The position numbers were made by a program, and so were the translations under genes. Shown here piece by piece: positions 427 through 24,363 of a stretch of 32,000 bases of DNA (positions within the stretch are counted from its first letter, which is position 1; each line of letters starts with the position of its first letter). The notes beneath the pieces were generated by a model, which saw only the letters and a list, made by a program, of their open reading frames with translations, did not search any database and was not told where the DNA came from. This DNA comes from an uncultured archaeon (GTDB taxonomy: Archaea > Asgardarchaeota > Thorarchaeia > Thorarchaeales > Thorarchaeaceae): assembly GCA_964354495.1 (NCBI GenBank), contig CAYHAA010000005.1:120001-152000 (forward strand), in the 5' to 3' direction.

Positions 427-873
427 ATGCCAGCACCAAAGCAGATTGAGCGGGTCGGTAGTTTATTCAGTACTCTCTCCGACAAGAGCAAGCCCTTTCT
501 CGAAAGATGCACTAAGACAAAGTTCCTTGCCATTGTCGACTATGATCGCGCTAGTGATGAGTATGTAAAGCTTGTAAGAAAGACTCTAAGCACCAAGGGC
601 TTGGGCATTGCAGACGCAGATGACTGCCAAGGAAGCTTAACAGATGTCAAGAATGCGCTAGAGTCATTGCATCTGGATACGGACCTTATGAATGCGCTTG
701 AGAATCTTCGCTCGACATATCTGGAGAGTATGCTCAAACCGGCTTTCAAGCGATATCTACAGAGTGAATCATGTGCGAAGGGGGACATCGAGAAGCTGTA
801 CATGAACGCCCTGAAGATAGACAGCCTAATTGAAGTGATGCAGTTCATGAAAAGAATCGAGCGAATTCAGTAA
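427..873 (+). CDS. Hypothetical helical protein (148 aa)
   Basis: ATG ORF divergent from amrS, with protein-like composition; it ends 3 nt from the convergent neighbour. No motif recognised. Confidence 0.7.
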   Translation: MPAPKQIERVGSLFSTLSDKSKPFLERCTKTKFLAIVDYDRASDEYVKLVRKTLSTKGLGIADADDCQGSLTDVKNALESLHLDTDLMNALENLRSTYLESMLKPAFKRYLQSESCAKGDIEKLYMNALKIDSLIEVMQFMKRIERIQ

Positions 874-876
874 TCT

Positions 877-2334
877 CTATTCTTTCTTTGTGCGGACATA
901 ATCACGGTGCACAAGGGTACTTCCATCAACTACCCAAGCAATACCCAGCGTTTGAAATTCCTCTGCCCACTTCATAACTATTGCAGGAGCAACTCCAAGC
1001 GAGCGAGCTATCTCCCTTATCGACATCTCGCCATGCTCTTCCACCATAAGGAATGCCTTGGTCTTCTCCGTGCTGTCCATCAAGCTCAGGTAGCCCTGAA
1101 GAATTTGCTCAGCATGGGCCAAGTTTGACTTGGTTTCCTCAAAATCACCCGTCATCCTCTTTAGGCTGGCTGTGGATCGCTCCAGCTCCGTCTTTATGCG
1201 CTCCAGCTCTCTAGCCTTGTCGCCAGACTCATAAGAGCGAAGTCGAGCCCTGAGTTCCTCCATTTCATCTAGCCTTGCTCCGGACTTGCCCATATCGTCC
1301 TCTAGCTGACGAATGTTGGTATTGAGCTCACCAATCTCCAGCTCCCTTTGGGAGAGCTTAGTGAGGTAGTCCTTTTCTTTTGCCTCTCCGGCTGTGTTCA
1401 GTGCTTCCAGTTCTGCAACCTTCTGTTCCAGAACTTCCTTCGATGTCTCAAGTGACTTCACAGCATGTCGCAGTTCATTGAGGGTCGTCATGTCGGCCTT
1501 TGGAGCAGCCTGAAGGCCCATGACCGTGTCCTCCAGATCATCGTTTCGGACCTTCAATTCAGCAAGATTCTTTCGTAGTTCTGCATTCTCTGATTCACGG
1601 TTCTCAGTCTTTTTCTTCTCTAGATTCAGTTCCTGTCTGAGCACTTCGACTGTGCTCTGGAACTGCTTCAGTTGAAGTTCGACTTCCTTTGGAACTTCAA
1701 CGCGCGGCTTCATTCCTAATTCAGAGGAGAGGAATTCAACCTCAGTCGTTGCTCTCTGGGTGTAATCATCAACGTTGCCTTTCAAAGCAGTAAGTTCCTG
1801 GAGAGTGAGTTTCATCGATTCGTTCATACTCTCAGTGATGTCGCGCATCTTCTCAAGTATTGGCGTGGACATGCCCGAGGTCAGTGATTCCTCAACTCTT
1901 GTGAACTCCTCTTGGACAATGGGTTGGACCTCTGTATCCACAAACATGCTCTGAAGATTGGTCTTGGCCTTGCGCTTGCTCCTATTGACTATATCACCTC
2001 TCATGCTCACGAGGTTACCCTTCAGGCCAACAAGAAATGAGAGGACTACAGGTACGAGATCGCGCTCGATTCTATCGATTGTCCCTTCAACATTGGTCAT
2101 ATTCCGCTCTAGAAGGGAGAGACTATCACGTAGCCGCTTAATGCTTTCATCGAGCTCCATTCGGCGGCGAACCTGCGTTGCTGATTCTACACGCATCACA
2201 TCGCTTGACATTCGCCCGGACTGAATCAGCTCATGCCGCATTTCATCATCAACGCCAAGCTCGGAGAGAAGACCATCAATGACTCTCTTGCTGTCTGCGC
2301 CATCGGTCGGTTCTTTGTTTGGATCCTTAGCCAT
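877..2334 (-). CDS. Long coiled-coil protein with C-terminal winged helix-turn-helix (about 485 aa)
   Basis: About 350 aa of E/K/L/R-rich heptad-like sequence. The C-terminus KAFLMVEEHGEMSIREIARSLGVAPAIVMKWAEEFQTLGIAWVVDG fits a wHTH. Start moved to MAKDPNKE (2334) because the longer ORF overlaps the divergent gene. Confidence 0.75.
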   Translation of the reverse strand: MAKDPNKEPTDGADSKRVIDGLLSELGVDDEMRHELIQSGRMSSDVMRVESATQVRRRMELDESIKRLRDSLSLLERNMTNVEGTIDRIERDLVPVVLSFLVGLKGNLVSMRGDIVNRSKRKAKTNLQSMFVDTEVQPIVQEEFTRVEESLTSGMSTPILEKMRDITESMNESMKLTLQELTALKGNVDDYTQRATTEVEFLSSELGMKPRVEVPKEVELQLKQFQSTVEVLRQELNLEKKKTENRESENAELRKNLAELKVRNDDLEDTVMGLQAAPKADMTTLNELRHAVKSLETSKEVLEQKVAELEALNTAGEAKEKDYLTKLSQRELEIGELNTNIRQLEDDMGKSGARLDEMEELRARLRSYESGDKARELERIKTELERSTASLKRMTGDFEETKSNLAHAEQILQGYLSLMDSTEKTKAFLMVEEHGEMSIREIARSLGVAPAIVMKWAEEFQTLGIAWVVDGSTLVHRDYVRTKKE

Positions 2335-2448
2335 GCGAAAACCTCGCTGCGAATTCCAAGAAGGACAGATGGAATGAAGAGCCTGACAATACATAAATCT
2401 ATTCGCGGAATGCATCGACCAACAATTTGGACTCTGGATGGCAAAAAG

Positions 2449-3285
2449 ATGCGGCTAAAGATAGAGATGGAGGCAGTTGTACACAATCGAGGCGTATCCA
2501 GGCTCAGAAAAGGAGTGATGACATGGCACCTCTTCACGGATATGGACAACCAATTTGTCGAGATGATTGATGTCTTCCCTCCTGCGCGAGTGACAGAGAG
2601 AGCTGAGAAGAATATGGTCGCAATCGTCAAGGTTCCGGAGTTGAATCCTGGAGAGAGTTTTTCGCCTACTGTCATTCTCCGAATCGATACAGTTTCACGT
2701 GATTGGTTTTTGGAGCCAAGAGATACGCCACAAGAGATGATGGCGAGAAACAGAGGAATCTACTGTAGCATGCAGAAATATTGGGAAACAACTGACGACG
2801 TGATTCAGGAGATGTCCCAGAAAGCTGCAGAACGAACCGGTGATGACGAATCGTATGCACGATTGGCATTTGATATGGTCAGAGAGAGTGTGAAACTGAA
2901 GACTCATCTTGACCGCAGAATAGGAGCCGCTAGAGCTGCCCGGGAGAGGGAGGGGGACTGTGACGAACACGCAGATCTCTTTGTCGCACTACTTCGTGCA
3001 GTAAGAATACCAGCTAGAAGAGTTGTTGGCCATTTCTTTCGAGGAAGTTCAGAACCCGAGGCGCATGCTTGGTGTGAGGTCTTTCTTGAACAGAAAGGAT
3101 GGGTTCCTGTTGATCCTGCTCTGGGCAACTTTGGCATCTTGAACGAAAACTACTTCTCACGAATCAGGGAGGGACAGGTTTCGGAACGACCCATGATTTC
3201 TCTGAAGTGGAGTGGAATCGCGACTGAGCCACCTACAGTTGAAGAGGTCATCAGGATGTCGCTAGTGGCCGATGATAGGGGCTAG
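2449..3285 (+). CDS. Transglutaminase-like (Cys-His-Asp) domain protein
   Basis: GDCDEHADLFVALLRAVRIPARRVVG (Cys), AHAWCEV (His), GWVPVDP (Asp). Start is ambiguous (2374, 2410 or 2449). No signal peptide seen. Confidence 0.88.
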   Translation: MRLKIEMEAVVHNRGVSRLRKGVMTWHLFTDMDNQFVEMIDVFPPARVTERAEKNMVAIVKVPELNPGESFSPTVILRIDTVSRDWFLEPRDTPQEMMARNRGIYCSMQKYWETTDDVIQEMSQKAAERTGDDESYARLAFDMVRESVKLKTHLDRRIGAARAAREREGDCDEHADLFVALLRAVRIPARRVVGHFFRGSSEPEAHAWCEVFLEQKGWVPVDPALGNFGILNENYFSRIREGQVSERPMISLKWSGIATEPPTVEEVIRMSLVADDRG

Positions 3286-4013
3286 ATGTTCTCAAGATAT
3301 CCCATTGCTTGAAGCTGTACAAACAGCTCTGCACCAAAATGCCAACATGAATGCGTGTCGAAGATTGAGCATCGAATCTGGGGAAGAAGGGGAGCATCCA
3401 GAGCTGACCGGAGAGTTCCTGCAAGGTGATGAGCCATCATCTCACCATACGCCGATACCTGAGGAAGTGAGTCGAAGAACCTTCGTTTGGTCGATTCTAG
3501 GGGTCCAGGCTTGTAATCACATATCTGAACAAAACCGTCCATGTAGCGAATGAGGTCGATATGTCCAGTTATGCTATAGCTATCGGACCATACAGGTACC
3601 TCAATGGCAATTGTCTGAGGGTCGTGAATTAGGAATTCCTTCAGAATTCCGTGGTCTGCAGAGAAGCTCAAATCATTGCGATTCTGATGATACTCCCTCA
3701 GTCTCAACACGAGGTCATCGTCAACCTTGGATGAGATCGACCCGATTCTCTCGAGCTGCTTTCGAAATCCGACTCTCTTCGCTTGAGGCATGCTCACGAG
3801 ACGAAGTCTTGAAGCTCTTGTGAACATGGGGTCAGAGAAGAGAGATTCTGGAATACGGCCAGACTGTATTGTCTTGAGGTGGGCCCATAGTGAGGCTAAA
3901 TCACCAGTTTGATTGCCAAGCCTCAGGTGATTGGAGGTGTTCCATTGGAAGGCATAGGCGACCTTACCGTGTTGATAATCATGTCGTACTATGTCGTCAG
4001 AACCTGCAGGCAT
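3282..4013 (-). CDS. PD-(D/E)XK (RecB-like) nuclease family protein
   Basis: Motifs IEVPVW, ITGHIDLI, ICDYKPG and QVSAY match the RecB-type nuclease motif set. The N-terminal ~120 aa are unassigned. Confidence 0.8.
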   Translation of the reverse strand: MPAGSDDIVRHDYQHGKVAYAFQWNTSNHLRLGNQTGDLASLWAHLKTIQSGRIPESLFSDPMFTRASRLRLVSMPQAKRVGFRKQLERIGSISSKVDDDLVLRLREYHQNRNDLSFSADHGILKEFLIHDPQTIAIEVPVWSDSYSITGHIDLIRYMDGFVQICDYKPGPLESTKRRFFDSLPQVSAYGEMMAHHLAGTLRSALDAPLLPQIRCSIFDTHSCWHFGAELFVQLQAMGYLENI

Positions 4014-4234
4014 ATCCCTCGTCGTTCTAGTCTAGAGCAGACCTTTTTAATCCATCGAACGAATGAGTCAAAGAAGTGGTGGATGAAGCAAATCATCAGA
4101 ATGCAATATCGGAATCCCAGCATTTCCAAATGAGAAAGCGACAATTCTTGGTCTACAATTTCATCTGGCCACTGACTGAAACCTGCACAAAGATGTGAGA
4201 GGGGAGGGCATGAACAGCCTACACCCTATTTCAT

Positions 4235-5020
4235 CTATGGCGAGGCATTCTCAACTAGCATCTTGATTATCCATCGGAGGTCCTTCTCAAGGATCCCATC
4301 TGATGTCTTGAAGACCATGATACATGAACCATCGTAGTTCACAGAGGTCTTGTATGGTGTATTGCTAGGATAGATGAAAATCCCCGTGAACCGTGAAATC
4401 GTTCCTCCATACATCCGACCATAATGACCCACTTCTGCCTTATTTTGGAGCTTGTCGCCCCGGAACTCAGCCTTTCTCAGTTCCTTCTTCTCAATATCTG
4501 TATAGACAATGTGCTCAACATTGATCTCTAGTGGTTTTGGTGGAGCCTCTGTTGGCTTGACAAGTTTGTCAAAAATGACTCTTCTTGCGTCCTTATTGAC
4601 AAACAATGGTTCAGCAATGATTTCAGTCAGATCCATCAGAATCTTGCGGAATCTCATGGCAAGACGACCTGATCCCCTGACCTCTGCAACTTTCTCGTCC
4701 AGTCTGACAGTTATGTTTCCTCTTTCAATTGTAGAGTATTTCTTGCTTATGCGCTCACCAGCTGCATCGAACTCATGGGCAACGACATTGAAAGCTGCCT
4801 TAATGTCGGCGATGACAGTTTTTCCACGGGAGTCGATATCAGCAAAACCAGCCTTGGGCTCCGTATCTGCATTGAAAGGAGCCAAGCCGCTGAAGATACT
4901 AGCTAACTGAGCTCCAGTAAGTTTCTTGGCTGCTTCATCATTCAATGTGAAGAGCCGTACTGATTGCCACAATCCGAGGGGCTCAATCCTGGACGGTGGT
5001 GATGGATTCTTTGCACTCAA
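4235..5020 (-). CDS. Hypothetical alpha/beta protein (261 aa)
   Basis: Long ORF with a TTG start and soluble-protein composition. No family recognised. Confidence 0.7.
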   Translation of the reverse strand: MSAKNPSPPSRIEPLGLWQSVRLFTLNDEAAKKLTGAQLASIFSGLAPFNADTEPKAGFADIDSRGKTVIADIKAAFNVVAHEFDAAGERISKKYSTIERGNITVRLDEKVAEVRGSGRLAMRFRKILMDLTEIIAEPLFVNKDARRVIFDKLVKPTEAPPKPLEINVEHIVYTDIEKKELRKAEFRGDKLQNKAEVGHYGRMYGGTISRFTGIFIYPSNTPYKTSVNYDGSCIMVFKTSDGILEKDLRWIIKMLVENASP

Positions 5021-5335
5021 ATTGCCTCATCTCACAAGCATGAAGGTCGTAGGATAACAGACCTCTACTTCCACTGGAGATAGCACTTCTTCTGATATAA
5101 ACTATACATCTAATCCAGAGAATAGCTAGGACTTACCCGAAGACTATGCACATACTAATCCAGGTATGAAAAAGGACTGCTGCTCAGGAAAACCCGAATT
5201 CATCCAGAGGTGATTGGCGCCAAACAGAATTTGCATTCAAATAAGGGTCATGCCATTCAATGAAGCAAAAGGATGATATTGAGGTTACAGACTTGGGAAG
5301 TCAGAAATGGAAAACCAGGAAGAGAGAACACGCCA

Positions 5336-5803
5336 ATGAGAGTCTTATTCGTACTTGGTTCAGGCGGGCATACAACAAGAGGACTGATACTAAGTAAGCA
5401 GATCAATGCTGAGAAAACGTACATGATTCCTTGGGAGTCCGAGGTCACTAGAAGCAAAGTGGGCAGCAACTACTTTAGAGTCCTATCGCCGCGGTTTAGA
5501 GCAAAGGACAACGTCCTGATGACCATTCTAAGGACAATGTTCCTTTTCTTGCACAGCTTCTTGATTCTGCTTATAGCTAGACCTCATGTTGTGATTAGTA
5601 CTGGTTCCGGCCTGACAATACCGCCCTTCTTCTTGGCCAAATTTCTGAGGATAAAGACAATCTACATAGAAAGTCCTAGCAGGGTCTATCAACCATCTAT
5701 TGCAGGAAGACTTCTCATCGGTAGGGTGGACATGTGGTTGAGTAGCTGGCCAGACCTTCCGGAGCGTTACAGAGGAATCGAGTACAGGGGGATGGTATTT
5801 TGA
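5336..5803 (+). CDS. alg14: Alg14/PssD-like glycosyltransferase acceptor-binding subunit
   Basis: RVLFVLGSGGHT, ARPHVVISTGSG and IYIESPSRV motifs. Start set at MRVLF. The stop overlaps the next start (TTGA). Confidence 0.85.
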   Translation: MRVLFVLGSGGHTTRGLILSKQINAEKTYMIPWESEVTRSKVGSNYFRVLSPRFRAKDNVLMTILRTMFLFLHSFLILLIARPHVVISTGSGLTIPPFFLAKFLRIKTIYIESPSRVYQPSIAGRLLIGRVDMWLSSWPDLPERYRGIEYRGMVF

Positions 5804-6258
5804 TCTTCGTCACAGTGGGTACATCGCTTCCACATGATGAGCTCGTAGAAACGATAGACAGACTGGTGGGTGAAGGAAAAATCAGAGACCGGGTTCTTGC
5901 ACAGAGAGGGGCAGGGAAGTATACTCCAAAGAACATCGAGCACATCCGGTTTTCTCCAAGCCTTGAGGAGTACTATGATAAGGCAGACATTGTGATCAGC
6001 AATTGCGGCGCTGGAACAATCATGGAGAATGTCACGAGAGGCCGAAGGCTGATAGTCATCCAGAATCCAGATGTCACTGGAGGTCATGAGTGGGAGCTTG
6101 TGGCGAAGATGGAAAAGGGTGAACACCTGATTTGGTGCAGGAAGACCAATCAGTTGCTAGACTGCATTGACAGGGCTCGTACGATGACGTTTAGACAGTT
6201 CAAGCCAAGGCAACTCATACTCTCCGAGATAATCAAAGAGATTACTTCATCGAGATGA
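5800..6258 (+). CDS. alg13: Alg13/PssE-like glycosyltransferase (GT28 C-terminal-type, donor-binding subunit)
   Basis: IFVTVGTS, VLAQRG, DIVISNCGAGTI and GHEWELV motifs; coupled to the alg14-like gene. Confidence 0.85.
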   Translation: MIFVTVGTSLPHDELVETIDRLVGEGKIRDRVLAQRGAGKYTPKNIEHIRFSPSLEEYYDKADIVISNCGAGTIMENVTRGRRLIVIQNPDVTGGHEWELVAKMEKGEHLIWCRKTNQLLDCIDRARTMTFRQFKPRQLILSEIIKEITSSR

Positions 6259-6369: not shown

Positions 6370-7794
6370 ATGGCTTTTGTCAAACCTGCTGAAACTCACC
6401 AACTCTATGGTGAACTAAAGGCCATTGTCGGACAGGAACGAGTGAACGACAAACAGGTCATCATCTCAGCTTATTCCAAAGATGCATGCCACCTTGAAGC
6501 AGAGAGACCTGGAATCGTCGTCATGCCAAAGAGTGTAGAAGAAGTCCAAGAGATTGTCAGGCTCTGCGCGCGAAGCAAGACACCTATTGTTCCAGCTGGA
6601 GGGAGAAATGGTATCTGCGGCGCCTGCCTGCCCAGGGTTCCCAATGCCGTCATGCTTGACATGGTCAAGATGGACCGAATCATCAAGATCGATGAGGATG
6701 TAATGACTGTCACTGTTGAGGCAGGTCTCAGATGGGCTGAGCTAATTCACCGTCTTAATGACAAGGGCTACAAGCTGGGCTTCCGAGGGCCTTATGGCGG
6801 GAATGTCGGCACTGTTGGCGGTTCAACGAGCATCAATAGTATCGGATACGCAGCCTCGAAGTATGGACCATCCACTGAGGGAGTTGTGTCTTTTGAGGTG
6901 GTTCTGGCCAACGGAGACGTAGTCCAGACAGGCACAGGATGGAATCCCGATGCCCAGCTGTTTGGCAGGTATTCCACCTTCTTTGACATGACCGGCATCT
7001 TCAATGGCGACCACGGGACCCTTGGAGTGAAGACAAAGGTCACTCTGAAGATATATCCAAAGGCGGACTGTTACACCTATGGCGACTTCGGGTTCAAGAC
7101 ACTAGAAGATGCCACAGAAGCATTTCTTGAGGTTCAGAAGCGAGGTTTCACAGAGGAGTTGAACCTACTCGTTGATCGTCAGTCCACTGAAACTTTCTTC
7201 CCGGGGTTCTTAGGAAAACATCCAGAGATCAATGCCATGTTCGCATCTATTGTACAGGAAACGGATCAGCAACTTGCAAACAGAAAGATGGAACTCATAA
7301 GAGAGATTGCTCTCAAACATGCCGGAAAGGATCTGGGCAACTTCGCGTCCCAAATGCACTGGTCCGAGATGTTCAACTTGGTTCAGCCGCTCTACAACAA
7401 TGGTTTCTGGTTGAATACATGTCACCTACGGCCAATTCCCACAATTCCGATAGTAATGAAACGAATCTGGGCGATATTCAAGAAGTACAAACTGCTTGAG
7501 AACGACATCAAGTATATAGCGAGTTGTCTGGGGTCTGAGAGAGCCTATGCCACTGGATGGATTACAATCTTCATTCCAACGAAGGACAAAATGGAGTATG
7601 GACTCAAGGTCTGGAATGAGATGCTTGACGCGATAATGGACACTGGTGCCTGTCCGTATTGGATGGGACTTCTTTGGGAGGACCGTGTTCTCAAGAAGGT
7701 TCGGAAGCCCTTCATCGATACATATTGGAAGATAAAGCAGGCACTCGATCCGGACAATATCTTTGCGCCAGAGGTGTTTAGGGGAGGTCCGTAA
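6370..7794 (+). CDS. FAD-binding oxidoreductase, VAO/PCMH (GlcD/D-lactate dehydrogenase-like) superfamily
   Basis: PGIVVMPKSVEEVQEIV, PAGGRNG, TVEAG, TVGG, VVLANG, GTLGVKTKVTLK and terminal IKQALDPDNIFAP motifs. Confidence 0.9.
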   Translation: MAFVKPAETHQLYGELKAIVGQERVNDKQVIISAYSKDACHLEAERPGIVVMPKSVEEVQEIVRLCARSKTPIVPAGGRNGICGACLPRVPNAVMLDMVKMDRIIKIDEDVMTVTVEAGLRWAELIHRLNDKGYKLGFRGPYGGNVGTVGGSTSINSIGYAASKYGPSTEGVVSFEVVLANGDVVQTGTGWNPDAQLFGRYSTFFDMTGIFNGDHGTLGVKTKVTLKIYPKADCYTYGDFGFKTLEDATEAFLEVQKRGFTEELNLLVDRQSTETFFPGFLGKHPEINAMFASIVQETDQQLANRKMELIREIALKHAGKDLGNFASQMHWSEMFNLVQPLYNNGFWLNTCHLRPIPTIPIVMKRIWAIFKKYKLLENDIKYIASCLGSERAYATGWITIFIPTKDKMEYGLKVWNEMLDAIMDTGACPYWMGLLWEDRVLKKVRKPFIDTYWKIKQALDPDNIFAPEVFRGGP

Positions 7795-7795
7795 G

Positions 7796-9373
7796 ATGAC
7801 TATCAAGCTAGAGAATCTGTCAAAGTATGAAAACGAGCTCTGGCTCTGCGCACGTTGTGGTGACTGTTCACTTGCAGACAAGACTGTTGCTTCTAAGCGA
7901 GATGTCTATCTTCCCTGTGCAATCAAGAACGTTCTTGGATTTGAAGCGTATGCATCAAGGGGTCGCATAATGATAATGAACGACCTCCTCAATGAAAGGC
8001 TACCTCTTGACAACGATATCAGGGACTGGGCCTACACATGTACAACCTGTAAGAATTGCATGGAAACTTGCACAGCCACAGCAGATGGTATCAATCTTCC
8101 GGATATGATGGAAGCACTCCGTAAGGATCTTGTGGCCAATAACTTCGACATGCCCAAGCATCGAGAGATTGAAGCATCAATCAATGAGCTTGGTAACCCA
8201 TACAAAGAGCCCGCCGATAAGAGACTCGCCCTGTTTGGCAAACGCGAGTGGCCTGAAACTGCACCTGTGATCTACTACGTTGGTTGTACAAGCTCGTATC
8301 GAGAGAAGGAGATTGCCAAGACTATGGTTGAGCTGTTTGACAAGCTCGGAGTAGACTATACAGTGCTTCCCAACGAGCAATGTTGCGGCTCAGTCTTACT
8401 TCGACTGGGGAGAACAAAATCCTCTGCAAGATTAACCAAGTCGAATCTTGCGCAGATGAAAGCGGCGGGGGCAGAAACAGTAGTCACCGCATGTGCAGGT
8501 TGCTTCAGAACTTGGAAGGTAGATGTTCCCAAACAGGGATTCGAGTATGACTATGAGATCTTGCACATCACAGAATACCTTGACCGCCTCATTCAGGAGG
8601 GCAAGGCAGCGTTTGAATCACCCAAGTCAATAACCGTCACATATCATGACCCATGCCATCTTGGCAGACATGCAGAGGTCTATGAGGCGCCACGTAGAGT
8701 CATCGAGGCTGTTGAAAATGTGACTCTCGTCGAAATGGAAACGAACAAGAGATATGCTCATTGCTGTGGAAGTGGCGGGGGCGTGAAGGGAAGCTACGGA
8801 GATCTGGCTAACGAAGTCGCAGGCAATCGAATCAAGGAAGCACAAGAAACGGGAGCATCCTTGTTGGTCACAGCTTGTCCGTTCTGTCATAGAGGACTCG
8901 AGGATGGAGCTAAGTCCATTGAGAGTGACCTTCCAGTCGTCGATCTCACGGAGTTCATCCTGCCATTCGTCATGCAAGTCAAGAAGAAGAAGGCAGTCAA
9001 TGAAAGTCCCCTAAAGAAGAAGTTCATGGAGTATCTTGGAAACCATCCGCTCATCTTCGATGGCTTGAAGAAGGGAGCAGTGATTGACTATGACCTTGAG
9101 GGGGACAGATTCCATGTGCTCGTAACCGGAAGGAACGAGATTCAGGTGAATCCTGTACGCGCAGAGAACGCCGACGTCGAGCTGCTTTTTGCTTCCAAAG
9201 CTGTGGAGGAGTTGATCACGTACAACAGTGAGGACGAATATGCAGCAAGGTTTGGTTTCTTATTCAAGGTGCCCACTGATGAAAAATGGATAAAATTCGT
9301 GCTGAGACTCAACATTGTGAAGCTGCTCATGAAAGGGTATCGCAAATTCGCACAGAAAGCAGGACTGCTATGA
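7796..9373 (+). CDS. Fe-S oxidoreductase (GlcF/GlpC/HdrD-like; two 4Fe-4S motifs plus two CCG domains) with a C-terminal SCP2-like extension
   Basis: CARCGDC...PC and CTTCKNCMETC; YVGC...QCCG...TACAGC; YHDPC...HCCG...TACPFC. About 125 extra C-terminal residues. Start (MTIKL) lies 1 nt after the upstream stop. Confidence 0.88.
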   Translation: MTIKLENLSKYENELWLCARCGDCSLADKTVASKRDVYLPCAIKNVLGFEAYASRGRIMIMNDLLNERLPLDNDIRDWAYTCTTCKNCMETCTATADGINLPDMMEALRKDLVANNFDMPKHREIEASINELGNPYKEPADKRLALFGKREWPETAPVIYYVGCTSSYREKEIAKTMVELFDKLGVDYTVLPNEQCCGSVLLRLGRTKSSARLTKSNLAQMKAAGAETVVTACAGCFRTWKVDVPKQGFEYDYEILHITEYLDRLIQEGKAAFESPKSITVTYHDPCHLGRHAEVYEAPRRVIEAVENVTLVEMETNKRYAHCCGSGGGVKGSYGDLANEVAGNRIKEAQETGASLLVTACPFCHRGLEDGAKSIESDLPVVDLTEFILPFVMQVKKKKAVNESPLKKKFMEYLGNHPLIFDGLKKGAVIDYDLEGDRFHVLVTGRNEIQVNPVRAENADVELLFASKAVEELITYNSEDEYAARFGFLFKVPTDEKWIKFVLRLNIVKLLMKGYRKFAQKAGLL

Positions 9374-9487: not shown

Positions 9488-10300
9488 ATGGTCGACTACA
9501 TTCTGATAACCAAGTTCTACAACGAACAGAAACGACTCCCGTCCCTGATTCAGAACATCTCTTCGCAGACACTGAAACCAAAAGTATTCGTTTTCATGAA
9601 CGATGGGTCCAATGACAGCAGCGCGGAAGTCGCTGCAAAGGAGGCTACGAAATATGGTCTCAAGTTTGAGATAGTATCAATGCCTCCGAAGGCTAAGGGA
9701 AATCTCGATACCCTTGGTAGGGCTTGGAATAAGGCTCAGCCGCTGTTACGTGTTCTCCTCAGCGACGTGCTCTACGCAGCAACTGCGGATGTAGACACTA
9801 TTTTTCCAGTCACCTACTTCGAGGGAATGATTGCATACTTAGAGAATCATCCTCATGTTGGTGTTGTGGCCGGCCAAGTTAGGAACCAACCAAAACGTAC
9901 GTTCCCCATGTTCACTGGGAAAGTATTTCGTGCCAATATCATTAGAAACATCAAACAGTATTGGGAAGTCTCGGCGGACTCGTTCATCAATGTCAAAGCG
10001 CTGAACAAGGGCTATAGGCTAGTCATTTTGGACAATGTCACAGTTGAGTCACCGCCAACCCATCTTCATACCTGGAAAGGAAGATTCAGGCAGGGGAGAC
10101 TCGCCTACTACTCAGGAACATCTCTTTCCTACGTTATTCTAAAGGGTATTGCGAGGCATGATCCACAGTACCTGAGAGGATATTGGTCTGAACGCTCTCG
10201 AAAGATCTGGCGTTGCCGAGATGAAGAGGTCCTAGCCTATTATGGAAATGAGTTCAGACGAAGGCTGGTAGATCTGGTCAAGAGAGTCCTCCATCTTTGA
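9488..10300 (+). CDS. Glycosyltransferase family 2 (GT-A)
   Basis: ITKFYNEQKRL, FMNDGSNDSS, GRAWNKA and ADVD (DxD) motifs. Confidence 0.85.
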   Translation: MVDYILITKFYNEQKRLPSLIQNISSQTLKPKVFVFMNDGSNDSSAEVAAKEATKYGLKFEIVSMPPKAKGNLDTLGRAWNKAQPLLRVLLSDVLYAATADVDTIFPVTYFEGMIAYLENHPHVGVVAGQVRNQPKRTFPMFTGKVFRANIIRNIKQYWEVSADSFINVKALNKGYRLVILDNVTVESPPTHLHTWKGRFRQGRLAYYSGTSLSYVILKGIARHDPQYLRGYWSERSRKIWRCRDEEVLAYYGNEFRRRLVDLVKRVLHL

Positions 10301-10428
10301 GTCGCGCATATGCCATTGACACGCCCTTTACGGAATTTCAGACTGCTGTTTATGAAAAACCCTTAAAGCAGCCAAGGGGCTCGGAGAATTCGTTAGTCGC
10401 ATCAACCAATAATGGTGACCTGTATTCA

Positions 10429-11532
10429 ATGAGGATTTGCATGATTGATGAGATTGCGAATTGCGCATATCATCTGACAACGGGACTCACTCGAAAGGGC
10501 TTCAAGGTCTATGTCATACTTGATACTCAGCGGAAACTGAGTCGACTTCTATTCACCTATGATGTACCGAAAGGCGCAGAGCTGTTCTGGGTCCGACCAT
10601 TGCCAATTCGACCAAGAGCGTTCGGGCTCTTCTTGCCCATGCTCTTGAGAATTCTATGGCTGCGTCCTCAGATAATCCATGTCCAGTACCTTTGGTCTCA
10701 GTTTTTCATAGGATTCATTGCCGCGAAACTGCTTAGGATTCCAATCGTAGCGACTGGACACGGTTGGGAAGTTATCGATGTGCCAAAAGACCCCATCCGT
10801 GGGAGAATACAGAAAATATTTCTCAGACGCGCGGACATGCTAATCCTTACAGCGGAATATTACCACAAATTCATGGAGAACTTGGTACCTGCTGAGCGGC
10901 GGATTTACATACCTAGGATGATTGACACTGACACCTTTCGACCCGGCATCCCTGCGGAGGATTTGATTGCAAAGTATGGAAACCGTATCGTAACGTTCAC
11001 TGCACGGCTATTCAAAATCAAGACACCGCATAAGACATTGAAGGCGTTTCGTATTGCTTTGGATGAGTTCCCAGATGCGCATCTCCTCATACTCGGCATC
11101 GGCCCTGAAGAGCAGAATATGAGAAAAATGGTAGAAGATCTTCGGATGACAGATAATGTTCATTTCCTCGGCGAAGTCCCGAATACAGAGATACCCAGAT
11201 ACCTGAATGCGTCAAAGGTCGAGGTTAGAGGTTTCAATCCCAAGACTCCAGAACTTGGCATATCTCACCTCGAAGCACTTGCCTGCGGGACTCCAGTCTT
11301 GACCTACAATGACTACAGAAATGTAAAAGGCATGATAATATGCTTGGAAGTACCTGAGATTGCCGAAGCTCTCAAGAGAATACTCCGCAATGAACAATAT
11401 CGGAAGGAACTCAGCAGGGCTGGACGAGAGTACGTAATGTCCATGTTCAGTATTGATGCCGCTACTGATATGACAATCCAAGTATATGAGAGGCTATTGA
11501 AGCAACGGGGTTTGAAGAAGAAGGAGAAATGA
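10429..11532 (+). CDS. Glycosyltransferase family 4 (GT-B)
   Basis: RPQIIHVQ, VATGHG, IDTDTFRP, FTARLFKIK, LILGIGPE and ELGISHLEALACGTPV (EX7E). Start set at MRICMID. Confidence 0.88.
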   Translation: MRICMIDEIANCAYHLTTGLTRKGFKVYVILDTQRKLSRLLFTYDVPKGAELFWVRPLPIRPRAFGLFLPMLLRILWLRPQIIHVQYLWSQFFIGFIAAKLLRIPIVATGHGWEVIDVPKDPIRGRIQKIFLRRADMLILTAEYYHKFMENLVPAERRIYIPRMIDTDTFRPGIPAEDLIAKYGNRIVTFTARLFKIKTPHKTLKAFRIALDEFPDAHLLILGIGPEEQNMRKMVEDLRMTDNVHFLGEVPNTEIPRYLNASKVEVRGFNPKTPELGISHLEALACGTPVLTYNDYRNVKGMIICLEVPEIAEALKRILRNEQYRKELSRAGREYVMSMFSIDAATDMTIQVYERLLKQRGLKKKEK

Positions 11533-11551
11533 CATATTGCCTGATCGTCAA

Positions 11552-12829
11552 ATGAAACTCTGTTTTGTTTTTGGCACGAGACCAGAGATAATAAAACTAT
11601 ATTCAGTCATGAAGGCAGCAGAGGCACACAAACTCATTAGTCCAATTCTCGTACACACAGGTCAACACTATGATTATGAGATGTCACAGATATTCCTAGA
11701 GGAATTGAAACTACCAGAAATCCATCATTTTCTTGATGTGAAATCAGGTCCCCATGGTGCACAAACAGCTTTGCTTCTCACTGAGATTGAAAAGTGTTTA
11801 CTCATGAGTAATCCAGATGCAGTTATTGTGCTTGGCGACACAAACACAACAATGGCAGGGGCGCTTGCTGCGGCAAAGCTTCAGATTCCTATTGCTCACA
11901 TTGAAGCTGGCTGCAGATCTTTTGATCTCAATATGCCCGAGGAGATAAACAGGCTTGTCGTAGATGCGGTTTCCAGCATTTTCTTTGCCCCTTCAGAAGT
12001 GGCAGCCCTAAACCTCCTCTTTGAAGGCAAACCTGAAGACAGAGTCTTTCTTGCTGGAAATACTCTCACTGACATTGTGGAGGAAACGCGAGAAGTCAGA
12101 GCAACCATGAAGCTCGACCATGATGAGATAGGAGAATTCAGCGTCGTCTTGACGCTTCACAGACAAGAGAATGTTGACAATAGAAAGAGGTTGGAAGACA
12201 TCCTGTTTGCGATAGGTAAAATTCGAGGAAAGATTGTATTTCCAATTCATCCAAGGACAAATAGCAGAATCAAGGAGTTTCATCTGGAAGAACTTGTGAA
12301 GAAAATCCCTAATCTTAGGCTCATCAAACCGGTGAACTATTTGAACTTCATGAAGATACTTGAGGAAGCCAAGGTTGTGATTACTGATAGTGGGGGAGTT
12401 CAGGAAGAAGCTATGTTGGTCGGTACTCCTTGCATCACTGCACGTGATACAACTGAGTGGCCTGAAACAGTATGGGCGGGGGCGAATTATCTTGCCGGAA
12501 CAGATGCAGAAAACATAACCACACGATGCAACATGATACTTGGGAGAGATAGTCCTTCGCTCCCTCCTTCAGGACATGAAGAATCACTTAATGCGAATGC
12601 TGGAAAAACGATCATTGAAATCCTTGTAAGGCTCTGGAAAGGAAATTCAATACATATGCAAAAGCCAGATATGACGCGAGGTCAGTATCCACTCCCCTGG
12701 CTCCTTGACACGAGTACTAAGAGCGGTAGATTGAGATGGGCGACACTGACTTTCGATGAGAATGGAAAAGCCATAGTCGATAAAAGGAAAAGAGGCAAAA
12801 ACAGGGTTGTGAGAAGGATGGATACCTAG
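11552..12829 (+). CDS. wecB: UDP-N-acetylglucosamine 2-epimerase (non-hydrolysing)
   Basis: FGTRPEIIK, HTGQHYD, VLGDTNT, HIEAGCRS, PEEINR, TLHRQEN, TDSGGVQEEA and RDTTEWPE motifs; C-terminal extension of about 60 aa. Confidence 0.95.
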   Translation: MKLCFVFGTRPEIIKLYSVMKAAEAHKLISPILVHTGQHYDYEMSQIFLEELKLPEIHHFLDVKSGPHGAQTALLLTEIEKCLLMSNPDAVIVLGDTNTTMAGALAAAKLQIPIAHIEAGCRSFDLNMPEEINRLVVDAVSSIFFAPSEVAALNLLFEGKPEDRVFLAGNTLTDIVEETREVRATMKLDHDEIGEFSVVLTLHRQENVDNRKRLEDILFAIGKIRGKIVFPIHPRTNSRIKEFHLEELVKKIPNLRLIKPVNYLNFMKILEEAKVVITDSGGVQEEAMLVGTPCITARDTTEWPETVWAGANYLAGTDAENITTRCNMILGRDSPSLPPSGHEESLNANAGKTIIEILVRLWKGNSIHMQKPDMTRGQYPLPWLLDTSTKSGRLRWATLTFDENGKAIVDKRKRGKNRVVRRMDT

Positions 12830-12844
12830 AGATGTATCCCCTGT

Positions 12845-14017
12845 CTAATCACATAGTTCCTCAATAAGCTTGGTATATGCTTCTACAGTTTCAGTGAGGT
12901 TGTAATGCTTCTCAATACGATTCCTCGCTCTGATTCCGAGGCTTCTTGCATCATCTGGTTTTGATAGAATATCAGAAATAGCCATCGAAATCTCCTTCGG
13001 ATTTGATGGTTCTATCAGAATTCCTTCCTGCAGATTTCGTATTACATCAGGTATATTGCCTACTCGTGTAGCAATGCATGGTAACTCCATTGCCATAGCC
13101 TCGAGCAGGGCGCCAGGAGTACCTTCTGTCAGTGAAGGGAGCACAAAGATATCGCTGGCACAGAGCAGACTGGGTATGTCCATTCTCTCACCAAGAATAT
13201 GCAGATTATCCTCAATTCGTAGGGACTCTGAAAGGCTCCTCAAGAATTCCTGGTTCCCCTTTCCGACCAGATAGAAGTGAGCATTCGGGTGCGCCTCAAG
13301 AACATAGGGAATAGCTTGGAGCAGGAATTCATGTCCTTTGACTCCCTTTCGGAGAGTCCCGACTGTGATAATTACTGACTTTCCTTCCATTCCAAAATCC
13401 CTTCTCAATCTGCCTCGGTCAAAATTAGACGGTGTGAACAAATCGAGATCAACGCCGTTCGGAATTATGACTTGGCGCACTCTGTTAAAATGGAAGCGTG
13501 ACGCATATGCATTATCCATGAATACGACTCGATCAGCAACTCTGTAAGCCTCGTGCTCTATCCTCTCTACAAATGACCGGAGAAATGGTTGAGACCTAGC
13601 TATTGTATCAGCCCAAGCTCCACTCACAAACTGAATCACTCTGGGTCTGTTCTTTCGTTTGCATAGTTCCACTGTTAATAGAGGATCAGGCGTAATCACA
13701 GCGTCAAATCTCTGCAAGTAGGTATCTGTGAGAGAACTGACTCTCTTGTCATAATAGATTTGATCCACGAAGGATAGATACACGAACTCAAACAGCTTTC
13801 CAAACGGAGGACTCCTCAGACTTGGCAGCGTAACTGTGGGAAGTGGATCGCGGAATGCCGAGCATTTCGGCTTTCTAGGTGTCCTGACAAGGGCGACTAT
13901 ATCCCATTGTTTCTTGTCTAATATGGTGTTGAAAACGCTTGTATACAGAACATCTACTCCACCACGCTCATACGGATACATTGTGCCAAGGATAAGGCAC
14001 AGCCTTCTATGCGACAA
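12845..14017 (-). CDS. Glycosyltransferase family 4 (GT-B)
   Basis: GGVD, IIPNGVDLDLF, VGTLRKGVKG, DIFVLPSLTEGTPGALLEAMAMELPCIATRVG. TTG start. Confidence 0.92.
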   Translation of the reverse strand: MSHRRLCLILGTMYPYERGGVDVLYTSVFNTILDKKQWDIVALVRTPRKPKCSAFRDPLPTVTLPSLRSPPFGKLFEFVYLSFVDQIYYDKRVSSLTDTYLQRFDAVITPDPLLTVELCKRKNRPRVIQFVSGAWADTIARSQPFLRSFVERIEHEAYRVADRVVFMDNAYASRFHFNRVRQVIIPNGVDLDLFTPSNFDRGRLRRDFGMEGKSVIITVGTLRKGVKGHEFLLQAIPYVLEAHPNAHFYLVGKGNQEFLRSLSESLRIEDNLHILGERMDIPSLLCASDIFVLPSLTEGTPGALLEAMAMELPCIATRVGNIPDVIRNLQEGILIEPSNPKEISMAISDILSKPDDARSLGIRARNRIEKHYNLTETVEAYTKLIEELCD

Positions 14018-14933
14018 AAGCCTGCTTCAGCCCCCTTTTTCCGCCAGATCTTCTGGTTCTAGGGCGATAGCCAATTGCAAGCCCTACGATATAGCCTATG
14101 AGTATCTGGATATACTCCATCTGAATAATCCGTGTGTTTCTTCTTCGCGTCTTCCATAGGAGATTAACGGGAACAAGGAGAACAGTGATTACAGTCGATG
14201 TCACCGCTCTCCAAATGGCATGATAGTTCACGAAACCATGTTTCCGCCATACGATCGCACTCCACTTTGAATAATGATATGTCCGCCGAAGGTTTGTACT
14301 CTCATAAACAGTATAGAAGGTGGTCACCTTCCCAATGAAATTGTAATCCGCGACTTGCGCGATACGTAGATGAAAATCATAGTCTTCAATCCAAGGAAGG
14401 TTGTCATCGATTCCTCCGATTTCTCTAACTAGCCTTGCATCAAACATTGTTGATGACATCGCGATCGGATTTCCCTTCTTCAGAGTGTCATAGTTAATCG
14501 TTGACTCGATTCCTGAAGGAACACGCTTCTGCCGCTTTCCGTTAGGATAAACCTTGCACACCAGACCACAGACAGCCCCTGTCATTGATACACCTTGAAA
14601 AAGAGTTTCTAGAGCATTCTCCAAATACCAGTCATCACCATCGATGAAGGCTACATAATCTGATTCTAAGACCTGCAAACCGACCTGTCTCGCTGCACCA
14701 ACACCTCGCCCAAATCCGTAGACTAGCATGAAGAGATCAGGATACTTCATAATGTAACTTTGAACAACACTAAAGGTATCATCGATGCTTGTATCGTAGA
14801 CAACAATGATTCTTTCGGGCAATAATGTCTGCTGCAATATGGAATCAAATGCTCTTCCCAAAGTTGGGGCACAATTCATTACAGGAACAACTACTGAAAT
14901 GGATGTCTTTCTGTGAATCAATGAGTTCCACAA
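14007..14933 (-). CDS. Glycosyltransferase family 2 with hydrophobic C-terminal segments
   Basis: ISVVVPVMN, GAARQVG, YVAFIDGDDW and EDYDFHLR motifs; overlaps the downstream GT4 start. Confidence 0.9.
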   Translation of the reverse strand: MWNSLIHRKTSISVVVPVMNCAPTLGRAFDSILQQTLLPERIIVVYDTSIDDTFSVVQSYIMKYPDLFMLVYGFGRGVGAARQVGLQVLESDYVAFIDGDDWYLENALETLFQGVSMTGAVCGLVCKVYPNGKRQKRVPSGIESTINYDTLKKGNPIAMSSTMFDARLVREIGGIDDNLPWIEDYDFHLRIAQVADYNFIGKVTTFYTVYESTNLRRTYHYSKWSAIVWRKHGFVNYHAIWRAVTSTVITVLLVPVNLLWKTRRRNTRIIQMEYIQILIGYIVGLAIGYRPRTRRSGGKRGLKQAFVA

Positions 14934-15114
14934 CTCGTCATCTTTCTTATTCTCTTTCTAGAGGGGTTTTCCTTTGTGCGCGAAGCATCTTTCACTAGAT
15001 AAACACTGCCTATGCCAGGCCCCTGCCTCACTCTACCTTCTTTTCCATATCCGTCATATCCTGCGAAAAGCGCGCTGTTCTCGATGACGCATCAAAACCG
15101 ATCGTGAGCCTCTT

Positions 15115-16671: not shown

Positions 16672-17050
16672 CAAATTCCACCAAAGCACAGATGTATTAT
16701 TATTAGAATTCAGGAGCGGTTACTGCAGACACCCGAACATAACTTCCTTTCAATCTTTTTGATTGTGTGATGAATGAGCTATCCGACCCAGCATTTCCCT
16801 GCTGAGTGTGACTCCGGGGAATCACAATCTGCTGAGCTTGCACAAAAGAGGCTCCTTCAAGATGATGTGCACGACCTAATAAAATCCCATCTTGCTTACA
16901 ATCGATCTAGCTCGTAAAACGGGCGAGTCAGTGGGGCTCGATTTGCTGTTCTGACTGTACGCTCCTGACAGATTCAAGATAGAGACTCGAAAAGACACAT
17001 CGCAAGAGATAATTCGTTGAACAGCTCACTGTCAATGGGAAGAGGAATAA

Positions 17051-22272: not shown

Positions 22273-23037
22273 TTGCAGGTTGATTTCAATATTGTCTGGG
22301 AGGACATCATCGTCTTCTTCATTGCTGTGATTTATGCAGTCATCATTCTCGTAATCGCTGACGTTGGCCGGAGAAAGATGCATCTTGGATCCGACTTCAC
22401 ACGGAAGATTGTACACCTGTTCGCAGGTGCTGCAATCTGGACAGTCCCCTACTATATTCATCCGTGGGTCGCTACTCTTGTTGCCCTCACTTTCGTGGTT
22501 ATGCTCGGACTGGCAAATACTGAGAGATTTGGCCGGTTCTTTGCAGCCATGGCAAGACCAGAGGACCTGGAACATGGAAGTGTGCGAGGCCCGTTCTGGT
22601 ATGCAGTATCTATCACAGTTCTTACAGCAATATTCACATTCACCGGGTATGACGAGTTCTATTTTGTAGCCGGTGCCGCCATAATGATCATGATGTTGGG
22701 CGATGGCATGAGCGCTCCTATCGGAATGAAATACGGAATAAAACATACGAAGGTGATATTCGGTTCAAAGAGAAGCATCGAGGGTTGCCTTGGCCTCTTC
22801 GTCTTCGGATTCATCGGAGCGATGATTGCTTTCTGGTGGTTTGGAATCTACAGTGATCCTATATTTACGTCGCCTGCGGGCTATCTCAACATGCTGCTAC
22901 TTGCTTTAATTGGAGCTTTCACTGGAACCATTGTTGAGCTCTTCAGTCCCAAAGGCACGGATAATGTCACGTTGCCGATGATAACCTGCCTAGTGATGTT
23001 CTTGGCTGCAATGCAGATGGGACTGCTAGTATTCTAG
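22273..23037 (+). CDS. CTP-dependent polyprenol kinase family protein (dolichol/phytol/diacylglycerol kinase, SEC59/VTE5/DGK1-like)
   Basis: TRKIVH, LGDGMSAPIGMKYG, KRSIEG, VELFSPKGTDNVTLP motifs; multi-TM; TTG start. Confidence 0.88.
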   Translation: MQVDFNIVWEDIIVFFIAVIYAVIILVIADVGRRKMHLGSDFTRKIVHLFAGAAIWTVPYYIHPWVATLVALTFVVMLGLANTERFGRFFAAMARPEDLEHGSVRGPFWYAVSITVLTAIFTFTGYDEFYFVAGAAIMIMMLGDGMSAPIGMKYGIKHTKVIFGSKRSIEGCLGLFVFGFIGAMIAFWWFGIYSDPIFTSPAGYLNMLLLALIGAFTGTIVELFSPKGTDNVTLPMITCLVMFLAAMQMGLLVF

Positions 23038-23805: not shown

Positions 23806-24363
23806 TCAGACACCACGAGCGACAAGTCGATAATAGTAAGTAGCTCCTGCTGTGTCACTCGTGCGCTCAATACGTAATACCTGTCCAGGTACAGCGCCAA
23901 GAACTCGCACAGCCGGATCGTCGTGACTAATCCGAGGAAGTTGAGTCTTTGTGATCTTGTAGTGATTTAGTACAAGGTTGATTTCTTCCTCAGATGCTAT
24001 TGAATGAGGGGGGACAAGTTCGTGCTCAAACAGGTCAAAGGATGCATAGCCGCCTTCAACTAATTCAACTTTTGCAGAGCTTGCTTCCTTCTTGGCAGCA
24101 GGGGTGAAACGCAGCCCGCCCACAAGCATGCCCCGTTGAGCTTCGACTTCCTCCATTTTGCTTGCGATCTCTTTCACAAAGGCAATACCAATGACCTTTG
24201 GTTCTTTGAGAATCCAAACAACGTATCGAGATATTTTTTCGCCCTCTCCTTTTGTCGGGTACATCACATACTTGTCTTCATATTCAAAGAGCTCTGTGGT
24301 CTTGTAAGCGCGAAGATTCAGAAGGCCCCTAGTCTTGACAACATGAATAGGCAGTTCGAACAT
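23806..24363 (-). CDS. rpo5: DNA-directed RNA polymerase subunit Rpo5/RPB5, long two-domain form (185 aa)
   Basis: C-terminal domain FDLFEHELVPPH...QLPRISHDDPAVRVLGAVPGQVLRIERTSDTAG...YYRLV is diagnostic of Rpb5_C; about 105 extra N-terminal residues. Confidence 0.93.
   Translation of the reverse strand: MFELPIHVVKTRGLLNLRAYKTTELFEYEDKYVMYPTKGEGEKISRYVVWILKEPKVIGIAFVKEIASKMEEVEAQRGMLVGGLRFTPAAKKEASSAKVELVEGGYASFDLFEHELVPPHSIASEEEINLVLNHYKITKTQLPRISHDDPAVRVLGAVPGQVLRIERTSDTAGATYYYRLVARGV

Follow-up and report, generated by a model that had tools for sequence, protein, structure and literature searches.

What does an oxidoreductase built like a lactate dehydrogenase oxidise once its lactate site is gone and a putative lipid carrier has been joined to it? 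The question is raised by two genes in a 32,000-nucleotide stretch of DNA from an uncultured archaeon of the Thorarchaeaceae (Asgardarchaeota; assembly GCA_964354495.1, contig CAYHAA010000005.1, positions 120,001 to 152,000), referred to here as the window. Its named homologues are Thorarchaeota, which likewise places it in a Thorarchaeia-type Asgard archaeon. The first gene encodes a flavin adenine dinucleotide (FAD) oxidoreductase of the vanillyl-alcohol oxidase (VAO)/p-cresol methylhydroxylase (PCMH) family, and the second an iron-sulphur (Fe-S) subunit that ends in a domain resembling SCP2 (Table 1). An initial annotation had read them as two open reading frames (ORFs) 1 nt apart that form a candidate lipid-oxidising module, and the boundaries are as it gave them, with a single G at 7795 between the genes. 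A TTG at 7763, given by the ORF finder as an upstream start of the Fe-S gene, was rejected as unlikely, since full-length homologues mostly measure 522-526 aa. We find that the 2-hydroxyacid site of the lactate dehydrogenases has been lost, and we tentatively favour a reaction in which a primary alcohol, long-chain or isoprenoid, is oxidised to the aldehyde.

Table 1. Position of the flavoprotein/Fe-S pair, its domains and two neighbouring features in the window.
Feature	Position	Strand	Remarks
VAO/PCMH-family FAD oxidoreductase, 474 aa	6370..7794	+	Stop TAA 7792-7794; D-lactate-dehydrogenase scaffold, rebuilt active site
Cap-domain segment H330-R354	7357..7431	+	Invariant H330, W331, F335, W347, N349, C351, H352, R354
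ACPYWMG loop, residues 427-433	7648..7668	+	Invariant P429-Y430-W431 where GEHG expected
HdrD/GlcF-type Fe-S subunit with C-terminal SCP2-like domain, 525 aa	7796..9373	+	ATG start at 7796
Cysteines 18, 21, 24, 41; 82, 85, 88, 92, for two cubane [4Fe-4S] clusters	7847..8071	+	Motifs in 85-86 of 86 homologues
Two CCG domains, cysteines 164, 196, 197, 233, 236; 287, 323, 324, 361, 364	8285..8887	+	Motifs in 85-86 of 86 homologues
Variable lysine-rich linker, residues 388-404	8957..9007	+	Mean identity 28%
Divergent SCP2-like domain (predicted), residues 405-525 (121 aa)	9008..9373	+	Extra helix before last strand; basic C-terminal helices
alg14 and alg13 homologues	5273..6258	+	PF08660 E 7e-18, PF04101 E 3.9e-13; synteny; context only
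Phytol/farnesol/dolichol-kinase-like membrane protein (presumed)	22273..23037	+	Motifs RKxxH, GDG, RSxEG, DN; possibly a salvage branch

Active site and family of the flavoprotein

The flavoprotein belongs to the VAO/PCMH superfamily, with a PCMH-type FAD-binding domain and a cap domain. It matches PF01565 (FAD_binding_4) at E 3.6e-35 and PF02913 (FAD-oxidase_C) marginally, just over the cut-off, and its model aligns with superfamily members over its full length at a TM score of about 0.8. By structure it lies nearest the D-lactate dehydrogenases (Z 38-39), followed by D2HGDH (35), alkyl-dihydroxyacetone-phosphate synthase (ADPS; 33) and VAO/PCMH (30-32). Against the GlcD model, TIGR00387, it scores 134 bits where the cut-off is 568.

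In mouse LDHD (mLDHD), Arg347, His398, His405, Glu442 and His443 are each essential (PMC10589216). All five are replaced in the window's protein. In a profile alignment the carboxylate-binding Arg347 corresponds to Met334, a position held by Met, Leu or Lys in the orthologues, and the metal ligands His398, His405 and Glu442 have no counterpart, the two strands that bear the histidines being without any. The base His443 likewise has none in the alignment, as PYWxG stands in place of GEHG. The initial annotation had remarked on ACPYWMG where EHGxG would be expected at the C terminus; the substitution is real, no histidine occurs in the motifs of the region from residue 353 to 474, and GxGNxH is found in 0 of 109 orthologues. 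Three of these have E-H-G just ahead of PYW, which is incidental and off the catalytic position. Besides the cap-domain and loop residues listed in Table 1, R79, N156, E263, W397, T399, G433 and W436 are invariant across the 109 sequences.

In a tree of 23 rows the orthologues form a single clade (100/100), outside both the 2-hydroxyacid dehydrogenases (99/96) and the ADPS-like proteins (100/99). Three long or partial paralogues from this genome and redundant rows were omitted; the ADPS-like references were chosen by motif and are not characterised enzymes, and the only PCMH is a Sulfuricurvum protein. A plasmid protein first taken as VAO-like had no strong VAO match, and its label in the tree is wrong. 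Deeper placement of the orthologues is unresolved, with long branches, in a part of the tree that also contains true PCMH. Forcing them together with the 2-hydroxyacid enzymes is disfavoured at p-AU 0.042 (approximately unbiased test), a borderline value, and the branches are long. Because all five essential site residues are replaced and the clade is separate, the flavoprotein is not a lactate or glycolate dehydrogenase, in line with the initial annotation's suspicion about the substrate. An ordinary D-lactate or glycolate dehydrogenase coupled to HdrD is the usual annotation of such Asgard pairs; the nearest solved folds agree with it, as do the database labels of members (glycolate oxidase or HdrD) and the published interpretation of Dld-HdrD pairs as D-lactate dehydrogenases (PMC9723677). 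Set against the active site and the tree, we consider it highly improbable.

Two other members of the superfamily have to be weighed. Identity with ADPS was rejected, because the His-His-His-Gly loop at the ADPS C terminus is absent from alignments of the flavoprotein and its orthologues, which fall outside the ADPS-like clade, and because a different gene of this genome is ADPS-like. The relationship to PCMH is closer at one position: the VYR Tyr of true PCMH and the His column of the 2-hydroxyacid dehydrogenases both fall on Y430, and Tyr430 is therefore a candidate catalytic base on alignment grounds. A PCMH/VAO-like enzyme acting on aromatic alcohols or alkylphenols, such as those derived from lignin, would pass an aromatic aldehyde to a neighbouring dehydrogenase and use Fe-S clusters in place of cytochrome c. 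The shared short C-terminal loop, the position of Tyr430 and a placement outside the clades with His motifs are consistent with this, and PCMH operons carry an aldehyde dehydrogenase. However, of the Tyr-Tyr-Arg phenolate pocket only the C-terminal Tyr is kept; the pocket is incomplete because the Arg is replaced by the invariant Trp431 and the N-terminal Tyr (GRNxGY) is missing. The structure is also nearer to D-lactate dehydrogenase than to VAO/PCMH, and the neighbouring genes described below indicate lipids rather than aromatics. We regard an aromatic substrate as improbable.

Replacement of the GEHG loop extends to other flavoproteins of the genome. There are about 12 FAD_binding_4 genes, most of them beside CCG genes, and several have PY/PF-type loops, not GEHG. 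Two operons (G000:C1:576116-579145 and G000:C2:96503-99469) consist of an FAD oxidoreductase gene and a CCG Fe-S gene with an SCP2 gene directly upstream; both of these flavoproteins are likely not lactate dehydrogenases, because PFK/PYK loops replace GEHG.

The Fe-S subunit and its C-terminal tail

The Fe-S subunit is of the HdrD/GlcF/GlpC type, and its 18 cysteines all lie within two cubane motifs and two five-cysteine CCG motifs. It matches PF02754 at E 7.7e-39 in two stretches and Fer4_8 weakly. Its best PDB match is 9ojn (E 2e-32), and its best NCBIfam match is TfrB (E 7.8e-66), although all NCBIfam matches are below their cut-offs.

Beyond the second CCG domain the protein continues into the tail that the initial annotation had likened to SCP2. 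Across Thorarchaeia homologues, mean identity to the window's protein is 65-75% in the CCG domains, 28% in the linker and 71% in the tail, whose last 25 residues, the basic C-terminal helices, are its most conserved part (89%). The tail is a real domain, because it is as conserved as the CCG domains and follows a variable linker. As a single sequence it has no Pfam or NCBIfam match, and it was not recognised in a first PDB profile search. SCP2 (PF02036) gave weak matches, with a best E of 0.0032 and below the cut-off, in 24 of 49 aligned tails. A profile of the tail family, searched against 1.8 billion proteins, found 38 relatives, comprising fused Fe-S proteins and free proteins of 110-210 aa.

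The likeness to SCP2 was borne out at the level of fold, while the family-model search that had also been proposed returned nothing for this protein and sub-threshold matches in its homologues. An AlphaFold2 model from a 55-row alignment reached a pLDDT of 94.7, and its top 10 Foldseek matches are all SCP2 proteins (E 2e-4 to 9e-4, TM 0.43-0.53), the SCP2 of UbiJ among them. With VIA-align, run against 48,161 chains, SCP2-like 2 came first (Z 9.3, root-mean-square deviation 2.7, 97 residues) and AF1534 second (Z 8.7), followed by SpnK, other SCP2s, an alkylsulfatase and Eis domains. The nearest atlas shapes are unnamed Asgard clusters (TM 0.86-0.96) and then named SCP2 at about 0.6; a feature search of the atlas gave leads below 0.9 only. 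Identity to SCP2 proteins is 10-16%. The model thus places the tail in a divergent family of the SCP2 fold, distinguished by an additional helix. That the tail binds lipid would follow by analogy with SCP2 carriers, but the same fold occurs in Eis, MycE/SpnK and alkylsulfatases.

Elsewhere this genome encodes an unfused paralogue of the tail, extended at its N terminus by an acidic stretch (G000:C1:28700-29383, also L002:1123-1806); its gene lies directly upstream of one for a triosephosphate-isomerase-like protein. Nearly all Thorarchaeia, including those without the pair, have a second match to the tail family.

Neighbouring genes and the proposed reaction

The counts that follow are samples, and related genomes are not independent. 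The orthologue group of the flavoprotein was found only in archaea in our searches, and its named members are Asgard; a clear gap separates orthologues (E <1e-140) from paralogues (1e-69 or weaker). Of 79 other genomes in this family, 46 have an orthologue. In a sample of 200 genomes from the phylum, orthologues occur in 36 of the 48 that belong to the Thorarchaeia family and in 12 from five other families. The database names include Hel-, Loki-, Jord/Frey-, Atabey-, Sigyn- and Hodarchaeota. Fusion and pairing are kept wherever the DNA is intact: the gene for the Fe-S protein with its tail lies 3' of the flavoprotein gene in 12/12 loci outside Thorarchaeia and in 18/20 wide Thorarchaeia loci, the exceptions being a contig end and a frameshifted copy. 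At locus L072 (G056:C1, ~2245000), in a single-contig genome, the pair is split into several ORFs by frameshifts that may be long-read errors. A Theionarchaea-type Fe-S protein (L078:6001-7506) has the same tail, so the fusion also exists outside Asgard.

Outside Thorarchaeia, one orthologous aldehyde dehydrogenase with intact catalytic Glu and Cys adjoins the pair in all 13 loci, in three arrangements, and in families f7, f13, f15 and f18 it is found in exactly the same genomes as the flavoprotein. In the Loki-type family f9, by contrast, the flavoprotein is present in 1 of 45 genomes, and in about 31 of the 45 an SDR (short-chain dehydrogenase/reductase) of the extended type adjoins the aldehyde dehydrogenase. 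The usual Loki order is SDR, free tail, aldehyde dehydrogenase and second free tail. In the one Loki genome with the pair, it is placed between the SDR and the aldehyde dehydrogenase; the fused tail there shares 61-63% identity with the upstream free proteins and 22-26% with the downstream ones. Because a free tail stands beside the SDR and aldehyde dehydrogenase without the Fe-S protein, the tail appears to work in the aldehyde pathway with or without an Fe-S core. The presence of the SDR where the flavin/Fe-S pair is missing is as expected if both carry out alcohol-aldehyde chemistry. The SDR is NAD(P)-dependent, with HpnA as its best model (E 2e-55). Its best structure match is PDB 3wj7, presumably the long-chain aldehyde reductase Gox2253, an identity that plays no part in the argument. 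Two Loki loci have the SDR and aldehyde dehydrogenase directly beside genes of ether-lipid synthesis, namely those of a digeranylgeranylglyceryl phosphate synthase-like protein, geranylgeranylglyceryl phosphate synthase and a geranylgeranyl reductase-like protein. A canonical SCP2 gene lies beside the Atabey copies of the pair.

A further neighbour is the kinase-like gene of Table 1, whose family we take from its motifs. The protein has no Pfam or NCBIfam match, and one aligned homologue weakly matches PF01148. Such a gene lies within 2-6 genes of the pair in 9 of 13 loci outside Thorarchaeia. In two Thorarchaeia loci it is 4 and 11 genes from the flavoprotein gene, the shorter distance belonging to a relative without the glycosylation island, and here it is 16 kb away. 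This genome has only two genes of the kind. In plants, FLDH and FOLK serve farnesal/farnesol salvage (PMC13415981).

Of the initial annotation's proposal of a lipid, isoprenoid or aromatic substrate, the hydrophobic part gains independent support from these neighbours (aldehyde dehydrogenase, free SCP2 proteins, polyprenol-kinase-like gene, SDR and ether-lipid synthesis genes), whereas identity with ADPS, a superfamily member it had named, falls away and the VAO/PCMH phenolate site is only partly kept. We tentatively propose that the two proteins form a soluble FAD/Fe-S dehydrogenase whose candidate substrates are geranylgeraniol, phytol or phytanol, or a fatty alcohol freed from ether lipids. 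The tethered SCP2-like domain, as carrier, would take the alcohol from membranes or hold the aldehyde product. Within an aromatic-lined pocket Tyr430 would deprotonate the alcohol and FAD would take the hydride, giving the aldehyde, and electrons would leave through the two cubane clusters and the CCG clusters to an acceptor, which may be a disulfide, as in HdrD, or a quinone or electron-transfer flavoprotein. In other Asgard classes the linked NAD(P)-dependent aldehyde dehydrogenase would convert the aldehyde to an acid, which could then enter beta-oxidation, and the kinase encoded nearby would recover this alcohol for use in lipid synthesis. For this organism the step from aldehyde to acid is a guess, because no orthologue of the linked aldehyde dehydrogenase was found in 48 genomes of Thorarchaeia; there it would probably be taken by tungsten aldehyde oxidoreductases (AORs). 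The genome has 11 of these, three near SCP2 genes, and its only Aldedh gene product is 26-32% identical to the linked aldehyde dehydrogenase and lacks the family insert. At G000:C19:52259-56579 an SCP2 gene is divergent from that of a 1215-aa AOR, which on inspection by eye has an apparent acyl-CoA ligase-like C-terminal fusion.

Several observations weigh against alcohol oxidation. The sequence itself gives no evidence of a substrate, and no orthologue of the linked aldehyde dehydrogenase was found in 48 Thorarchaeia genomes. The kinase-like gene is missing from the f15 and f9 loci examined, and part of its linkage may be inherited gene order. The tail resembles SCP2 to a moderate degree (TM 0.43-0.53, Z up to 9.3), with roles other than carriage known for the fold, and the Theionarchaea-type Fe-S gene has no flavoprotein gene beside it. 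Finally, one Loki genome has both SDR and flavoprotein, so the two need not be redundant.

This last genome is accounted for by an alternative in which the pair would cleave its substrate oxidatively. Hydride would be removed next to the heteroatom (ether, thioether or amine) in a glycerol ether lipid or a compound carrying a prenyl group; after addition of water an isoprenoid or fatty aldehyde would be released, to be burnt by the aldehyde dehydrogenase or recycled by SDR and kinase. Such a scheme mirrors the plant FCLY-FLDH-FOLK route (PMC13415981), and the flavoprotein has structural relatives with ether-type substrates in ADPS and VAO (Z 30-33). However, most Loki genomes keep the SDR, aldehyde dehydrogenase and carriers without the flavoprotein, which fits a replaced alcohol-oxidation step better, and the flavoprotein lacks the ADPS motif and is excluded from the ADPS-like clade. 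We therefore judge cleavage unlikely.

The pair might also run as a reductase, with thiols reducing the CCG clusters as in TfrB and FAD reducing a lipid aldehyde or double bond, or the tail might bind a lipophilic quinone or anchor the complex to the membrane. The TfrB match, the fusion of the tail to the Fe-S rather than the flavin subunit, the UbiJ SCP2 among its fold matches and the conservation of its basic helices are all compatible with this. Yet the free tail gene persists beside SDR and aldehyde dehydrogenase where the Fe-S protein is absent, and the oxidative direction is the likelier one beside an aldehyde dehydrogenase whose reaction is essentially irreversible, making this a rather remote prospect.

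Thorarchaeia suggest one more function, in the synthesis of glycan carriers, through oxidation of polyprenol to polyprenal toward dolichol or, as in DprE1, of a lipid-linked sugar. There the pair is flanked on one side by a conserved block whose last genes are alg14/alg13 and on the other by a variable glycosylation island, alg14/alg13 being adjacent in about 16 of 20 loci, and the aldehyde dehydrogenase that would drain the aldehyde is lacking. However, the alg13/14 link is not seen outside the Thorarchaeia family, whose whole upstream block is syntenic, and about a quarter to two fifths of Thorarchaeia genomes have no orthologue. The flavoprotein scores 36 against the DprE1 model (cut-off 500). 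The only PF02544 match over the cut-off in this genome is not read as a polyprenal reductase; we take it to be of the ICMT/PEMT type. A role in glycan-carrier synthesis thus seems very unlikely.

More broadly, the pair could conceivably be the entry step of a hitherto undescribed anaerobic Asgard route that degrades or recycles ether lipids or isoprenoid alcohols, with a flavin/Fe-S dehydrogenase (or ether-cleaving enzyme) and tethered carrier replacing O2-dependent chemistry; this wider proposal is doubtful on present evidence. Also in this genome, a candidate ether-lipid backbone pathway lies at G000:C1:300280-310534, where genes resembling glycerol-3-phosphate dehydrogenase are clustered with those of an ADPS-like flavoprotein (HQHGVG), a CCG protein and a radical-SAM-like protein, as well as with the genome's single Aldedh gene.

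Upstream of the pair, window positions 427-5020 hold a gene block that precedes it in most Thorarchaeia relatives: an unknown protein of 148 aa, a 512-aa coiled-coil/helix-turn-helix protein, transglutaminase-like and PD-(D/E)XK-like proteins and an unknown protein of 261 aa. The last (4235-5020, minus strand) has no Pfam or NCBIfam family, lies beside alg14/alg13 in 19 Thorarchaeia loci, and its atlas neighbours are unnamed clusters of archaea and bacteria. The alg14-alg13 genes are divergent from the pair in most Thorarchaeia but have the same orientation here and in a few close relatives, a local inversion. The downstream island (9488-16689) encodes GT2 and GT4 glycosyltransferases, a UDP-GlcNAc 2-epimerase, further GT4 and GT2 enzymes and a flippase, and its content varies between genomes. 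At 23806-24363 (minus strand) is an Rpb5/Rpo5 gene of 185 aa, a longer eukaryote-like form whose N-terminal extension weakly matches Mrr_cat.

Comparison with known systems

Our literature search, of incomplete coverage, yielded no paper that treats the SCP2-CCG fusion or the present orthologue group. In Asgard genomes, pairs of FAD and CCG proteins are routinely assigned to the D-lactate dehydrogenases, and arguments for a metabolism based on lactate have drawn on them (PMC9723677). Because the present pair has lost the lactate site and several paralogues in the same genome lack the motif, part of that picture may instead be lipid or alcohol catabolism. The pair offers a concrete candidate, suitable for expression, for the enzyme by which long-chain or isoprenoid alcohols might be oxidised anaerobically in marine sediments. 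It also offers a new type of active site in a well-studied flavoenzyme family and, if the fold prediction is right, an archaeal branch of SCP2-like carriers that is new and belongs to the lineage closest to eukaryotes.

In architecture the pair resembles GlcD/GlcF and Dld-HdrD, yet it lacks the defining residues of these enzymes and of ADPS and PCMH/VAO. The FAD D-2-hydroxyacid dehydrogenases with CCG partners (mouse LDHD, 8JD-series; A. woodii LctD, 7QH2; E. coli GlcD/GlcF; archaeal Dld-HdrD) have the same two-subunit plan, a common flavoprotein scaffold (Z 37-39, ~20% identity) and an Fe-S partner with two cubane and two CCG motifs. The pair differs from them in having no metal/carboxylate site, a PYW loop for GEHG, a separate clade, the extra SCP2-like domain and a linked aldehyde dehydrogenase. 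With PCMH and VAO (1DII, 1VAO) it shares the short C-terminal loop, a Tyr at the same position, an aldehyde dehydrogenase nearby and, presumably, aldehyde-forming chemistry; unlike them (Z 30-32) it lacks the phenolate-site Arg and second Tyr and has an Fe-S partner rather than cytochrome c or O2. AGPS, the alkyl-dihydroxyacetone-phosphate synthase (4BBY, 2UUU), is of the same superfamily (TM ~0.8) and has lipid substrates. It is, however, a non-redox enzyme that needs no Fe-S partner; the flavoprotein has no His-His-His motif and lies outside the ADPS-like clade, and in this genome the ADPS-like gene is a different one, next to genes resembling glycerol-3-phosphate dehydrogenase.

The plant FCLY/FLDH/FOLK system (PMC13415981) interconverts aldehyde and alcohol, combining an extended SDR with a CTP-type prenol kinase, the kinds of gene found around relatives of the pair, although the analogy comes from neighbours only and FCLY is an unrelated flavoprotein. 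As for the modelled tail, it differs from known SCP2 domains in its low identity, a score below the Pfam cut-off, the extra helix and membership of its own archaeal family, but it has the alpha/beta topology of AF1534 (3BN8/3CNU), UbiJ (6H6N), human SCP2 and MFE-2, and in MFE-2 and the alkylsulfatases SCP2 is likewise fused to the C terminus of an enzyme. The Loki SDR is presumably close to FLDH.

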